A stretch of 63,927 bases of DNA, counting the filler, from Thermoplasmatota archaeon (lineage in GTDB: Archaea > Thermoplasmatota > E2 > JACPAO01 > JAHFTW01): NCBI GenBank assembly GCA_041623215.1. It is 6 parts of 6 records of this genome, joined end to end, with 100 filler letters (N's around TTAATTAATTAA, not from the genome) between each part and the next. Parts side by side here need not be neighbours in the genome. Positions count along the whole stretch, not along the records: positions 11,022 to 21,792 come from JBFJXH010000058.1; positions 21,893 to 32,479 come from JBFJXH010000059.1; 4 more parts are not named here. One strand, given 5' to 3'. This document shows, one piece after another, positions 15,001 through 24,000 of this stretch (position 1 is its first letter; each line of letters opens with the position of its first letter). Made by a program: the position numbers.

Positions 15001-18000
15001 CCGACAAGCGCTTGAGGACGAACATGGCACAGCCTTCGCCCATGACAAAACCATTGGCGGCCGCATCAAAGGGCCGCGAGCCGTCCGGGGACAACGCTCC
15101 AATCTTGCTGAATTGGATGTAAGCCGTTACGTCCATGGAACGGTCACTACCGCCCCAGACGACCACATCGTTTTCGCCCCGGCGCAAGGTATCCACGGCA
15201 GCATCAAGGGCGGCCAAGCTGCTAGCGCAAGCTGCGTCGGTCGTGAAGTTCTTGCCGCCGAGGTCGAACGCGTTGGCAATGCGCCCGGCGGCCACATTGC
15301 TCAGATGCCCAGGCATGGTGTCTTCGGTGACTGGATTTGTGTTTGCCTTGAACGTCGTCTCCACGCGTTCGAGAACGGCGTCCCGACGCGAGTCCGGCAG
15401 GGCCTGGAAATCGGGGTCCGCCCGCAAGGCGGCTGCGACTTCGGGCCAGTAGAGACGCTTGCTCACGGCTTTTTGGATTTCTCCACCCATCGCGTTTCCG
15501 AGGATGACGGCGCAGCGATCACGGTCGAAGGCCGCGCCATCGTCGCCCCGTAGTCCTGTTGCCAGCCCCGCGTCCAGCAATGCCTGCCGGGTGGCCGATA
15601 GCGCCCAGCGCTGGCTAGCATCCACCTGATTGACCACGTTGGGTGGCATGCGATAGGCCAAGCCGTCGAAGGCATCATCCATGACGAAAGCCCCAATCTT
15701 GGCGTACGTCTTGTCGGCTGCCTTACGGTCGTCCGACCAAAACAAGTCGGGGTCCCAGCGGTCCTTGGGCACCTCGCGGATGCTCGAGCGGCCGGCGAGC
15801 AGGTTGTTCCAAAAGGTGGCAACATCGGGTGCATCAGGCAAGACACAGCCGGCGCCGACGATGGCAATGGGTTCGTTCGGATGCGAGCGGGGGGACGGAG
15901 TCATAGTGGACATGGTATCCAGGGTGCGGTTGGCGGAATCGGAAAGAGGCAGGGGAAGGTGGAACAGGTAAGGGCAGTCTGGCGACGGCCAGCGAGACCA
16001 GCTTGATGCGGCTACAGGGGCGTGAGCCCGTGCTTTTTCTCCGGACGTGTCTCCCGCTTGTTGAGAGCGGGAAGCAGCGCGGCGATGAGGCGCGGGCGGG
16101 TTTCGCGAGGCTCGATGATATCGTCAATCCACCCTCGTTCTGCTGCCACGTAGGGGTTGTTGAAGGCCTCCTGGTATTCCTGCGTGAACGCCTCCTTGAG
16201 GCGAGCCGCTTCTTCGGGGTCGTCCTCCGCCAGGGCCGCCAGCTTGCGCTTGTGAATGATTTCCACGGCGCCACTTGCACCCATGACGGCGATTTCGGCG
16301 GCAGGCCAGCTGAGATTGCAGTCGGTGCCCACGTGCTTCGAGCCCATGACGATGTAGGCGCCGCCGTAGGACTTGCGTAGCACGACGCTCAGTTTGGGCA
16401 CGGTCGCCTCGCAATAGGCATACAGCAATTTGGCGCCGTTGCGGATGATGCCGCCATGTTCTTGGCCAAGTCCCGGCAGGAATCCAGGCACGTCTACGAA
16501 GCTGATGATGGGGATGTTGAAGGCATCACAGAAGCGAATGAATTTGGCGCCCTTGATGCTGGCTTCGATGTCCAAGGCGCCGGCGAGGACGGCGGGTTGG
16601 TTGGCGACAATTCCAACTGGGACACCGGCCATGCGGCCAAAGCCCACGACGAGGTTTTGGGCCCAGCGCGGTTGCACCTCGAAGAAGCTTCCCACATCCA
16701 CCACGTGATCCACGACGTCCCGAACATCGTACGGCTTTCCTGGGTCGGATGGAACCAGGGTGTCCAATTCGGGGTCGCGGCGGTCAGCCGGGTCTTCGGC
16801 CTCGACGATTGGCAATTCGCCGAGATTGTTGCTGGGCAAGTAGCTCAGCAATTTCCGAATAAGGGCGATGGAGCCATCCTCATCCAGACCACTGAAACTT
16901 GCCACGCCAGACTTGATTTCATGCACCGTTGCCCCGCCCAGCTCTTCCTGGGTTGCCTCTTCCCCGGTGACCGTTTTGACCACGTCGGGGCCAGTGACGA
17001 ACATGTGGCTCGTCTTGTCTGTCATGATGACGAAGTCGGTCAGCGCAGGCGAATAGACGGCGCCGCCGGCGCTGGGGCCGACAATGACGGAGATTTGCGG
17101 AACTACGCCGCTTGCTTCGACATTCTTGAAGAAAATGTCCCCATACCCGGCAAGACTGGCAACGCCCTCTTGGATCCGCGCGCCGCCCGAGTCATTGAAG
17201 CCTATGACGGGGGCCCCCATTTGCATGGCCTGCTTGAGTGTCTTGGCAATCTTTTGGCCGGTTGCGTGGCCCAGGCTGCCACCAAGCACCGTGAAGTCTT
17301 GCGAATAAACGAACACGAGGCGACCGTCAATGGTGCCGTGGCCGCATACCACGCCGTCGCCGTCAAACCGATTCTTGTCGAGTCCAAACGTGGTCGCTTG
17401 GGTCCGCACGAACGGGTCCATCTCAACGAAGGTCCCTGCATCTAGGAGAAGTTCGATGCGTTCTCGTGCCGTGTACTTGCCTTTGGCATGTTGGGATTCG
17501 ATGCGCTTGGCGCCACCGCCTTGCAGGGCCTTGGCCTTGCGCTCGCGAAGCGCGTCGATGGCACTCGCGCTCCCACTTGCCCCTGCATCGTGGTTTGGCT
17601 GCGTGTCGTCCGCTCTACCGCGCAGGCTGTCAGGTTGGAGGACCACTGGTTCAGAGGCCCCGTTACTGGCCGCCGATTCGTCCGCGCTGGGCGAGGCGGG
17701 CGTGGTTGGACTCATGGGTTTGGCCCGGCTAAGGCGCTACTTGAACCTTATCTTGACAAGGGGGGCGCAGCGTCGGCTCACCGCGAGATAGATTTCGGCG
17801 TTTGACGAGGGTTTGCCTTGACGTATCAGATTGACTCGAACATGTCAAGGGTCGATGGTGGGCCGGGGTGACGCCAGAAGGCGGCCCGGTCAGCGAGCCA
17901 ACAGCACAACGCCCAGGACAATCAGGGCCGCCCCGGCAAGTTTGGGCGCCGTCATTGCCTCGCCGAACCACAAGGCGCTGGCAACGAAGACCAGCACCAG

Positions 18001-21000: not shown

Positions 21001-24000
21001 GGAACAATACGTAGGCCCCGGGGTACGCGTGCGTTTCAATGTCGGCCGTCATGCCACGCCAATCCCAGCGAGCAGGATGCCTTGTTTCGCCTACGCCATC
21101 CAGACTTCCGACCAACAAAAGGACAAGAAACACCGGCGCGACCAGACGCGCGGGGACGCGCATGGCACCGCGAACCACCAGCAGAATAAGCGCGGGGAGC
21201 GCCAGGACCGCGTAGCGAGGGGTGAAGATCGGTGGCCCCACCAATGAAAAAAGAAGGGGCAGTAACACGCCTGCCGTCCACCAAATAACCGGTAAGGCAG
21301 CCCCCTTGCGCCAGCGCCAAAGACCCCAAGTAACCAGGATGGCCCACAGGGGCGCAATGAGGTAACTACCGGCTTGCCACCGCACGGTTGCCATCAGGTC
21401 GTCGATGCTTGGCGGGGGAATCCAGAACCCCTGGGACACCCGATTGGCGCGGTCCAAGAAGACGAGGCCATACCAAGGCAAGGCAGCAATGGCTAGGGCC
21501 ACATGCGCCCACCACCAATGTCGCGGGAGGCCGGGAAGCCAAGCAAGGACGGGGGAACGCCACCCCGATGTGGCCGGCGCCGGCTCACCTTCCTTGGGAA
21601 TTTCGGGAGGTGCGCGATTGCTTGCAGGTCCAGTTTCGACGTGCTCAGCCGGCGAGAATTGGCTCGCCAAGGTGGCTGTCGGCGGCGGGTCAAGGCCGTC
21701 ATGCCAGGCCCACCAGGCGGCAGTCAACACGTGCGCCAGGGCGATGAAGAGGCCAAACACGTGCGTATGAATGAGCAGGAACAGTAGCGCCANNNNNNNN
21801 NNNNNNNNNNNNNNNNNNNNNNNNNNNNNNNNNNNNTTAATTAATTAANNNNNNNNNNNNNNNNNNNNNNNNNNNNNNNNNNNNNNNNNNNNAGTTTTCC
21901 ATCCTGCTTCCAGGCGCAGGTCAAACGCGTCCGTTGCCTCTACAGGTTCAGGCAATGGACGGCCGCCGTCGCTTTCCTCAATGGCGTCGTTGGTGAATCG
22001 GATGGTGGCGTCGCAGGGCCCACTGATGATGACATGCTCGGCAGCGCAGTCAAGGTAGCCCTCGAAGCTCAAGCTCTGGGTCGAAGGCTCAAGGCTTGCA
22101 AGGTCTGGGCTTAGCACCAGGATGGCCGTGGCGGTTTCCCGGTCGCCGGGTAGAACGGTGACGGTGGCATTTTGGAAGGTGGCGGCTTGGGCTGTAACGA
22201 GGGTGGTGCCACGCGGGAGGTCCCGAATGATGAAGCTCCCATCGCGATTGGAAACCGCCTGCGCCGTGGCGGGTGCAGTGGTAATGGTGGCTTCGCCAAT
22301 GGGTCGTCCGGTGTCGTCCGTAACGACGCCCGTCAACGTGTAGGTCGTTGCCGAGCCACTTGCCGATGACTGTGCCCGTCCACCGGGGGCCTCCTGGGGT
22401 GGGGCCTCCGTGTTGCCGGGCCCTGGGGCGTTGACCGGCTGGCTGGGGGCGTCGTCTCCCAGACATCCCGCCAACGCGATGGTAACAAGCGCCAACGCGG
22501 CGGCCAGGGTGATGGGCAGTCGCTTCATGTGCCGTCCCACCGAGCCGGTTTGTAAATGGCTTGGTCGCGTCAGGGCGGACACGTCAACCATGGGCGTACG
22601 CTCGGGCAGCAAAATGCTGGACTTGTCAATAGATTGGGCGTCCAAATCCACTATATGTGACCTTGGCTGGCCCTGCCTGTGACCTCTCCGCTCATGGAGT
22701 ACGTGTTCAAGATTCGAAGCGCCGACAATCTGCTTTGTGCCTTCACTACGGAACACCCCACGGTGCGAATTGTTCTCAACCTGCTGCGCTCGGGAGCCGA
22801 AGCACCGGTGGAAAAGGCGATTGTGACCATTCTCGCCGACCCCACGACACGCAAGCGGTTCCTGACCGGCCGCTTTGCCAAGCGCTACGGAACCTATGAC
22901 GTTCTTTCTGAGAATGACGAGTATGCCAGCGTCGAAATCAGCACAGCAGTGCTCAGCTATTACCAGCAGCATGACCCGATTCAACTCACCATCGGCATGC
23001 TCGGTCCTGAAACCGTGTTCCAGCCGGTCATCGTCCAAGGTGGTTACATCCACATCAGTGTCATGAGCCCCAATCCTGATGGTGTAGCCGTGTTCAATCG
23101 CTTCACGGGGCATATGCGGCAAGTGGTGCCCGCTGACGATTTCAAGCTCCTGCACGTTGGACCTTACACGCCCGATTTTGGTGCCAAGGGTAAAGGGGTT
23201 CGCCTGACGCCGCGGCAGGAGGAGGTGCTTCGAATGGCCATTGCCATGGGCTACTATTCTGACCCGCGCGGTTGCAACCTGGATGACCTGGCGCGGGCGT
23301 TTGGGATCAGCAAGGCCGCCGTGCACAAGCGCCTGCAAACCGCAGAAAACCAACTCATCACGGCCCATGTTGAGGCGCCATGACTGGCCTCCGACTCGAC
23401 GACATCCACAAGGCCCTGGGCGGGCGAAGGGTCCTCAGGGGCGCAACGCTTCGCGTTGAGCCAGCGCAAGTGCTGGCGATTCTCGGAGACAACGGCGTTG
23501 GCAAGACCACTTTGCTTCGCATTGCTGCAGGCCTGCTACGGGCGGACCAGGGCACCCGCGATGCGCCGAATCGCGTTGGCTTTGCTGGCCACGAACCGGC
23601 CTTGTACGGGCACCTGACAGCGGCCGAACAGCTGGTGTGGTGGGCAAGCGTGCACCAGATGCCGGTGCCCGCCGACGGCGCCGAGAAAGCCCTTGCAACA
23701 GCCGGCTTGGCGACGGTGGCGGACACCCGCTGCAGCAAGCTGAGCCGTGGCCAGCGCCAACGCCTTGCTCTGGCCCAGGCGATGCTGCCGGAGCCCGACC
23801 TCCTGGTCTTGGATGAGCCGTGGACTGGCCTTGATCAAGCTGGGCGAGGGTGGCTGGAAGATCGACTTGGAGCATCCGCTGCGCCGGTATTGCTTACCAG
23901 CCACGATGCCGCTACTGCCAACCGGGTCGCCACGACCGTTCTCAGGCTAACCCCTGATGGTCGGCTTGCCGAGGTGGTGACATGAGCCTAGCGGCCCTGC

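Follow-up and report, generated by a model that had tools for sequence, protein, structure and literature searches.

The lipid-linked pentofuranose pathway is known from bacteria, one example being the mycobacterial DPA pathway (Rv3806c, Rv3807c, DprE1, DprE2, Rv3789, and Aft/Emb). Passages of PMC11127046 describe three-component systems, with those of Citrobacter youngae O1/O2 as the prototype, that combine a UbiA-type synthase fed by PRPP with a flippase and a GT-C glycosyltransferase, while optional epimerase genes set the sugar and DprE1/E2 stand for arabinofuranose (Araf). According to the same passages, bacterial systems with Araf-containing glycans have DprE1/E2 homologues. In Pseudomonas aeruginosa Pa5196, the pilin is arabinosylated through PsPA7_6245-6249 and TfpW, comprising DPPRS, DprE1, DprE2, and an ArnT-like GT-C, and ArnE/F proteins of the SMR family can replace the GtrA-like component (bioRxiv 10.1101/2020.04.19.049825). 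An Aneurinibacillus locus has the order GT39-UbiA-DprE1-DprE2-SMR. Among archaea, a haloarchaeal run of PHP, DPPRS, small protein, and epimerase genes with matches in Haloarcula is likewise centred on DPPRS; the part of PMC4866403 concerned annotates it in a prophage table and proposes no pathway, and the run is of the epimerase type without DprE1/E2. The literature searched yielded no archaeal description of the route, as the genome-wide survey's note had claimed, but the synthase itself is already annotated in haloarchaea.

The analyzed window, 63,927 nucleotides long, consists of six contigs of a Thermoplasmatota genome (G000, a 223-contig MAG whose assembly is 88% complete) joined by N linkers. 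The survey's note placed four co-directional genes, for a membrane protein, a UbiA protein, DprE1, and an SMR protein, at 17890..21790, and their positions, shared orientation (minus strand), and homologies were borne out. They encode the 3' part of a PMT_2/ArnT-like GT-C glycosyltransferase (20693..21792), cut by the end of contig C58, a UbiA-family polyprenyl-phosphate phosphoribosyltransferase (DPPRS/PPPRS; 19706..20569), a DprE1-type FAD oxidase predicted to act on polyprenyl-phospho-ribose at C2' (18252..19709), and an SMR-family protein of the lipid-flippase type (17890..18252). The UbiA, DprE1, and SMR genes are coupled, with an ATGA overlap at the first junction and a TGATG overlap at the second. 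Outside the module, on the same strand, lie a pccB-like acyl-CoA carboxylase carboxyltransferase gene (16012..17715; PF01039) and a PfaA-like type I PKS/FAS megasynthase gene (11022..15913) that continues on contig C179. The ends of C58 and C179 overlap by 141 nt and those of C36 and C58 by 128 nt with one mismatch. The linker after C58 starts at 21793 and, since the window was joined from six contigs, genes beyond 21792 are not neighbours of the cluster.

The homology to the mycobacterial pathway is clear for the first two enzymes, with their motifs kept. The only PDB matches of the UbiA protein were two DPPRS sequences (E 3e-36 to M. tuberculosis DPPRS, 8j8j), in agreement with the proposed Rv3806c-like decaprenyl-phosphate phosphoribosyltransferase; it keeps N61-D62-D65-D69, the N-D-x2-D-x3-D pattern, and the KRRAE motif, and its NF008977 score of 222 bits is narrowly below the cut-off of 234, which the copy in the related genome G031 passes. 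DprE1 matched M. smegmatis DprE1 over residues 20-464 (E 1.6e-90) and carries the reported GKNH, QYQ, and LAKD motifs, with 446 bits against NF053785, below the cut-off of 500. The gene is full length, and 12/14 of the active-site-lining residues (Table 2 of PMC6128881) are kept; the positions of Cys387, Ser228, and Asn385 differ from the mycobacterial enzyme. With 10 silent and two replacing variants in G000, dprE1 is under apparent purifying selection. Its codon adaptation is low (3rd percentile), and GC3 is genome-like.

The missing 5' part of the GT-C gene was located at C36:14257-14958, giving a joined frame of about 557 aa. The N-terminal half scored 31.8 bits against PMT_2 (cut-off 26.1), which turned the earlier guess from the topology of a partial gene into a confirmed assignment, and a WVDE motif aligned with WxDE of the homologues. 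A structure model of the G031 homologue matched the folds of ArnT, STT3, and Pmt; the fold search ranked ArnT first, AftD sixth, and AftA/Emb lower, all at about 13-18% identity. Unlike the mycobacterial pathway with its Emb/Aft polymerases, the cluster has one small GT-C, and the archaeal proteins, of about 520-560 aa and PMT_2-type, were not of the Emb/Aft arabinosyltransferase kind. The subfamily was also present in 2/8 genomes without a DPPRS match (G024, G028), so this GT-C is not tied to a lipid-pentose donor.

The SMR assignment was upheld by a PF00893 score above the cut-off. In the alignment, the helix-1 Glu is absent and an Asn is invariant, a trait of lipid SMRs (PMC9574504). Genes of this subfamily adjoin a DPPRS gene in 27/44 metagenome loci; the subfamily is tied to DPPRS genes and is predicted to act as the flippase, in the place of the GtrA-like Rv3789 of mycobacteria. 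The cluster has no Rv3807c-type gene either: as had been noted for G000, no phosphatase gene was found within it, and the same held for G001 and G031. A Pfam search of G000 revealed a single PAP2 gene, beside TBP on contig C82. An HAD gene is convergent with the G296 cluster. The supposed PHP-type phosphatases beside other DPPRS genes were rejected, these proteins being methyltransferases.

The partner of DprE1 distinguishes G000 from its relatives. Complete sets of UbiA, DprE1, DprE2, and GT-C were found in three other Thermoplasmatota genomes (G001, G031, G296), with a DprE2-type SDR gene directly after dprE1 in each. The absence of DprE2 reported for the cluster therefore stands for G000 and fails for these three, and the gene order of G001 is not the same four-gene order as had been stated: it comprises five genes (GT-C, UbiA, DprE1, DprE2, SMR), the order of the Aneurinibacillus-type locus. 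DprE2 was the only PDB match of the G001 SDR at E<=1e-12; scores of the archaeal DprE2-type SDRs against NF053786 were 135 and 188 bits, under the cut-off of 250. In the 88%-complete assembly of G000, dprE2 was not found by tblastn, two NCBIfam models, or a 73-sequence HMM run over six frames, where the best score was 85 bits versus at least 236 for profile members. The SDRs that these searches turned up in G000 were general ones only, the best of them YdfG-like on C106. Contigs from two other sequencing runs bridge dprE1, the SMR gene, and pccB without an insert, which rules out a local mis-assembly as the cause of the gap; no claim draws on the small-share runs X3 and X4. Of 80 bacterial dprE1 loci, 74 carry dprE2, and among the 53 with full flanks only two lack an adjacent copy.

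Altogether, we consider it fairly probable that the module builds a lipid-phosphate-linked pentofuranose, likely D-arabinofuranose, and adds it to a surface glycoprotein or glycan on the outside of the membrane. The preferred reading is a three-component pentofuranosylation system that uses an archaeal lipid carrier; its sugar is likely arabinofuranose, and for G000 the main rival is ribofuranose. A phosphatase encoded elsewhere, for which the C82 PAP2 is a candidate, would strip the 5'-phosphate; DprE1, judging from its conserved active-site residues, would oxidise C2', and a DprE2-type reductase would yield lipid-P-Araf. This is the weakest step for G000, where the reductase would lie in the unassembled part or another SDR would substitute. 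An SMR dimer would then flip the donor, and the GT-C, as the operon context suggests, would add the sugar to an outside acceptor, possibly AglB N-glycans or PKD-domain or pilin-type surface proteins; AglB, UppS, Prs, and PAP2 are all present in G000. In relation to the C. youngae systems, as presented in the passages of PMC11127046, the module has no fused HAD phosphatase, an SMR protein replaces MATE, the GT-C is PMT_2-type, and dprE2 is missing in G000; in an archaeal host, the carrier is likely of the dolichol type and the acceptor a glycoprotein or glycolipid, not an O antigen. The Pa5196 cluster, in contrast, includes a phosphatase and a GtrA-like gene, its GT-C is unlinked, and its acceptor is known (bioRxiv 10.1101/2020.04.19.049825). 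The survey's note had proposed that such a route also works in an archaeon. The confirmed GT-C, DprE2 in three relatives, an SMR subfamily associated with DPPRS, and the archaeal location strengthened this proposal; three points had to be revised, namely the sugar of G000 itself, the mycobacterial label, and recent transfer.

A rather unlikely but serious alternative is that G000 lost dprE2 and now transfers ribofuranose by the same donor pathway, with dprE1 left over or bypassed. The gene is missing both at the site and in all six frames, the junction is cleanly re-coupled by TGATG, and the codon adaptation of dprE1 is low; moreover, in Citrobacter, as reported in the passages of PMC11127046, Xylf gives way to Ribf once the epimerase is lost, and the GT-C accepts either sugar. 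Against this stand the intact length, active-site residues, and mostly silent variants of dprE1, the incompleteness of the assembly, and the consideration that an active DprE1 alone would probably drain the ribose donor. The same apparent purifying selection on dprE1 could be read as a sign that DprE1 purposely works without DprE2, a 2-keto-pentofuranose lipid being transferred as such or changed by an unrelated enzyme, and the two bacterial loci without adjacent dprE2 offer a parallel. We regard this as improbable: no such product was described in the literature searched, the cluster contains no candidate modifying enzyme, and it is simpler to assume a reductase that escaped assembly or another that takes its place.

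The mycobacterial region holds dprE, accD4, and pks13 together. In both G000 and G031, the module is immediately upstream of pccB on the same strand, and it might be supposed to cooperate with the carboxylase and the type I PKS in making an acylated arabinose envelope as in mycobacteria. This is very improbable. Matches to pccB occur in 32/32 genomes of the family (closest copies 68-84% identical) and dprE1 in only three of those 32; the module is located elsewhere in G001 and G296, the G031 module differs in origin, and the PKS is PfaA-like, not Pks13-like. In most of the family loci retrieved, the PKS comes after pccB, and the region surrounding pccB includes suf genes in 15/19 family loci, in agreement with the C36-C58 join, which predicts suf there. 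The module occupies a variable slot between these family-conserved suf genes and pccB-PKS that is occupied in other genomes by unrelated surface genes, and it likely serves surface variation. Its described position upstream of the megasynthase operon was right, but the adjacency looks incidental and the link to the PKS positional. A TTGAC-N8-GTCAA palindrome upstream of pccB was discarded as a candidate (conserved in 0/20 loci), and a promoter scan found no bacterial-type site, bacterial motifs saying little for an archaeal host. The idea that a contaminating bacterial contig entered the bin, for which the fragmented MAG and the bacterial nearest named relatives of DprE1 at about 50% identity could speak, is largely refuted and hardly credible: the contig has the TNF and GC typical of the genome, its pccB shares 84% identity with the copy in G001, the suf-pccB-PKS order is common to the family, whose proteins carry Thermoplasmatota or Thermoplasmata archaeon labels, contigs of other runs bridge module and pccB, and G001 has an orthologous module. 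The cluster sits on a true archaeal (Thermoplasmatota) chromosome.

If the preferred reading of a lipid-linked pentofuranose donor is true, archaeal lipid carriers and surface molecules are served by a sugar activation that bypasses nucleotide sugars and leads from PRPP to lipid-P-pentofuranose, and arabinofuranose is predicted in archaeal glycans. The reading would also offer an origin for archaeal glycan pentoses that can be tested directly, because annotations of the synthase gene extend to haloarchaea that can be cultured. Two things limit the surprise: this known chemistry is widespread among bacteria, and the form with DprE1 is rare and accessory.

The module was likely acquired from bacteria. 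It is not specially mycobacterial, contrary to its description: among the best matches listed, the nearest named relatives belong to Planctomycetota, Acidobacteriota, Chloroflexota, and Bacillota, and DprE1/E2 loci are spread over many bacterial phyla. In Aneurinibacillus, the SMR and DprE1 proteins are 51% and 43% identical to those of G000, but the Aneurinibacillus DprE1 does not group as sister of the archaeal proteins, and at E 1e-4 BLAST matched the GT-C of this locus with none of the archaeal ones. No archaeal names occurred among the 120 best DprE1 matches, and the 80 listed of 598 loci from a GTDB scan, examined for other archaeal phyla, and the 40 listed of 63 plasmid records with DprE1 were all bacterial, each sample being too small to indicate absence. 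The reported distribution (2 of 41 genomes) was corrected for DprE1 to 3/197 genomes of the class plus G296 of another class; unlike the mycobacterial pathway, the module is non-core and patchy. One clade of the four archaeal DprE1 copies was rejected (AU p=0.0004); this rules out a single origin in archaea and implies repeated gain of the gene. The suggested recent transfer was thus not single, nor very recent, given 54% identity between the G000 and G001 proteins and the genome-like GC3. The UbiA synthase was commoner (17/197 genomes; matches in G083, G092, and G171 on contigs under 2 kb were excluded from the secure archaeal cases), its other loci being accompanied by other flippases, GT-Cs, epimerases, or methyltransferases. 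We tentatively propose, as a possibility, that this Thermoplasmatota order varies its surface like enteric serotypes: PRPP-fed, lipid-linked pentofuranose systems would be kept on an archaeal carrier while the modifying genes (DprE1/E2 for arabinose, SDR epimerase for xylose, methyltransferase, or none) are swapped, bacteria having supplied DprE1/E2 on at least two occasions and G000 representing a switched state with DprE1 but without its usual partner. Such naturally occurring forms, having or lacking DprE2, an epimerase, or a methyltransferase, may serve the study of GT-C donor promiscuity.

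The four-gene cluster described by the genome-wide survey's note on contig C58 (window 11022-21792) was confirmed. All four genes lie on the minus strand: a membrane protein truncated where the contig stops (20693-21792), a gene of the UbiA family (19706-20569), one for an FAD oxidase (18252-19709) and an SMR gene (17890-18252), the last three being coupled by ATGA and TGATG overlaps. The oxidase matched Mycobacterium smegmatis DprE1 (E 1.6e-90) and retained 12 of the 14 residues in Table 2 of PMC6128881, including His132, Lys134, Gln336, Lys367 and Lys418, when mapped via the M. 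smegmatis alignment, in which coinciding residues implied an offset of +7; Ser228 and Asn385 were not kept, and Cys387 was replaced by Ala. The oxidase scored 446 bits in the NCBIfam DprE1 model, below the cut-off of 500, and the UbiA protein fell just short in the DPPRS model (222 versus 234). The only PDB matches of the latter were DPPRS synthases (E 3e-36), and it carries the N61-D62-D65-D69 and KRRAE motifs, the counterparts of which were tested in Citrobacter ORF15 (PMC11127046, section 7). In the alignment, the SMR protein has no Glu in the first helix and two invariant Asn residues; according to passages of PMC9574504, Asn often replaces the central Glu in lipid-flipping SMRs. This SMR subfamily adjoined a DPPRS gene in 27 and dprE1/E2 in one of 44 metagenome loci, many of them short; the long ones inspected looked bacterial.

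Contigs C36 and C58 share a terminal overlap of 128 nt in which one position differs, and C36 provided the N-terminal half of the truncated membrane protein. This half contains a WVDE motif and reached 31.8 bits for PMT_2 (cut-off 26.1), so the GT-C identity that had been guessed was borne out. The joined frame has about 557 aa and eight hydropathy peaks in a crude scan. An AlphaFold model of the full-length homologue from a relative, G031, rather than of the G000 protein itself (pLDDT 74.8), retrieved ArnT as the top fold match (E 8.8e-7, TM 0.58), followed by STT3, Pmt4, AglB and AftD; this settles the GT-C fold, not the donor. C36 also carries, beyond the suf genes, a second GT-C gene that comes after one for a surface protein with PKD repeats (these two at L018:6667-8352 and 4298-6649); the product of this second GT-C gene is 37% identical over 448 aa to the G031 GT-C and nearer to it than the module's own GT-C.

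Full-length DprE1 was found in three of the 197 class genomes (G000, G001, G031), three of the 401 sampled phylum genomes (G000, G001, G296) and one of 21 genomes in G296's class; all four carriers are less than 90% complete. The G001 locus reads GT-C, UbiA, E1, E2, SMR, and DprE2 was the sole PDB match of its SDR at E≤1e-12. G031 has a PKD protein, E1, E2, UbiA, GT-C and pccB, and G296 has UbiA, E1, E2 and SMR, plus two GT-C-like genes, and a HAD gene converges on the cluster. Upstream of the G296 module, on its contig C26 (L021:9797-14496), we recognized by eye a gene for an FTR1-like permease as well as large, helical secreted proteins, of which one ends in a dockerin-like region. The gene order of G001 recurs in an Aneurinibacillus-type locus (L164:3332-8360; GT39-UbiA-DprE1-DprE2-SMR), so that a surface glycan bearing arabinofuranose is predicted for this culturable genus of Bacillota.

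On balance we favour the reading that the module is a bacteria-derived three-component system, in which lipid-P-arabinofuranose would be made and the arabinofuranose then transferred outside the cell. The system is a variant of an already known kind of pathway. It would work like the DPA branch, yet no DprE2, on which membership of that branch is tested, was found in G000, whereas G001, G031 and G296 possess it. The interpretation in the note was partly supported: the lipid-linked pentofuranose route in an archaeon gained support from the GT-C and from DprE2 in the three relatives, and the missing dprE2 makes arabinofuranose less certain in G000. This gene was not found in the 88% complete assembly by tblastn, two NCBIfam models or a six-frame search with an HMM built from 73 DprE2 sequences (best score 85 bits versus at least 236 for profile members). 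The main rival, ribofuranose as the G000 sugar following dprE2 loss, seems unlikely to us. The dprE1-SMR-pccB junction was bridged without an insert by contigs of sequencing runs X1 (16344-19044) and X2 (16784-18345), which differ at 16 and 9 letters; both runs belong to a single study that may itself be the source. Such a state is unusual, since dprE2 accompanied dprE1 in 74 of 80 bacterial loci (51 of 53 where each flank extended for 3 kb). In Pseudomonas, DPPRS, DprE1 and DprE2 are each required, while phosphatase loss merely reduces glycosylation, according to passages of bioRxiv 10.1101/2020.04.19.049825. Among the variants listed (40 of 44; 39 in genes), dprE1 carried 10 silent and 2 replacing ones. 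Neutral change would leave only some 25-33% silent. The excess makes dprE1 look maintained despite its low codon adaptation (3rd percentile). A second SDR can substitute for DprE2 in corynebacteria. Elsewhere in G000 we found one PAP2 gene, which lies beside TBP, and genes for PRPP synthase, a cis-prenyltransferase and AglB.

DprE1 is common across bacteria: of 8000 candidates scored, 7576 passed E 1e-80, and we estimate about 16000 GTDB stretches. The unrooted tree of 44 rows, picked out of 202 sequences, paired G000 with G001 (88/96) and placed G031 with Acidobacteriota and Bdellovibrionota (100/100); a single archaeal clade was rejected (AU p=0.0004), and a quick 34-row tree gave three separate places. 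In the UbiA tree (82 rows, unrooted), G000, G001 and G296 fell among Gemmatimonadota and Pseudomonadota (99), whereas G031 joined a clade of 12 archaeal sequences, all from G000's order (99). Judging from these placements, E1/E2 were likely added to a resident synthase in G031, and the whole unit was likely acquired by the G000/G001 ancestor. As the trees are unrooted, we infer the direction of transfer from the distribution.

The G000 assembly (1.94 Mb, contamination 0.04%) comprises 223 contigs, six of which (C57-C62), joined by N linkers, make up the window. C58 is ordinary for the genome (GC 0.62; 77th by tetranucleotide distance among the 133 contigs that reach 5 kb), and proteins of family members are labelled Thermoplasmatota or Thermoplasmata archaeon at NCBI. 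We matched pccB in 32 of 32 family genomes; of the 19 family stretches retrieved around this gene, 15 contain suf genes. The slot between suf and pccB-PKS is variable, holding lipoprotein-like proteins, a PKD protein (G006) or a lone GT-C (G028); in G000, with suf genes, the second GT-C and the PKD-repeat protein upstream on C36, it is occupied by the module. This supports the C36-C58 join and argues against mis-binning of C58. It also makes the link to the megasynthase look positional. The module precedes pccB in G031 as well, but lies elsewhere in G001 and G296. The order of pccB and a PfaA-like type I PKS/FAS with KS-AT-KS-ACP repeats (window 11022-17715, continuing on C179) recurs in most family loci fetched (L022-L040), which makes the megasynthase a family-wide trait of these archaea. 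The SMR-pccB spacer (17716-17889) contains five TTGAC/GTCAA half-sites, among them one TTGAC-N8-GTCAA palindrome, which was absent upstream of pccB in the 20 relatives examined. On contig C59 (23380-26171), ABC ATPase, membrane subunit, CcmC-like and CcmE-like genes, recognized by eye, resemble a cytochrome c maturation set.

The consulted parts of PMC11127046 describe such systems in bacteria and one phage only, with 'archae' occurring once, in a reference (figures S11 and S12 could name more hosts). Among the listings and abstract openings that our searches covered, none dealt with an archaeal pathway of this kind, and the terms searched for in PMC8305020 gave no mention of it. The synthase has already been annotated in archaea, since the prophage table of PMC4866403 lists a haloarchaeal run of PHP, DPPRS, a small protein and an epimerase, with no comment in the part consulted. 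We detected DPPRS in 17 of 197 class genomes, of which we do not trust three because they lie on contigs below 2 kb, and among the phylum genomes in 18 of 401; these genomes are kin, and the DPPRS and GT-C counts are not independent. A GT-C-type gene accompanied 10 of the 11 non-DprE DPPRS loci of G000's order (nine by BLAST, G036 by Pfam); among the 11, an LPG_synthase_TM flippase-like gene occurred in six, a common SDR epimerase in five and a methyltransferase in six. By analogy with ORF13 (PMC11127046, section 11), the shared epimerase could yield xylofuranose. The GT-Cs of an epimerase-type locus (G025) and the DprE-type locus of G031 are 55% identical, which fits donor swapping. Of the 32 family genomes, 8 have this GT-C subfamily, and two of these 8 gave no DPPRS match, which speaks against a strict GT-C/DPPRS link.

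The order also has DPPRS clusters of another type (L139-L148, L041). This second type combines an LPG_synthase_TM or GtrA flippase with GT87-like 1100-aa and PMT_2 GT-Cs, also with an SDR epimerase and/or methyltransferase, and adjoins ribosomal L1-L10 genes in G005 and G014. In other Thermoplasmatota (G263, G318, G339, G268, G201; L158-L162, L157), DPPRS had neither DprE1/E2 nor the tested flippases nearby, and several of these genes adjoin large Ig-like or surface proteins. The DPPRS of G297 lies near DNA polymerase DP2.
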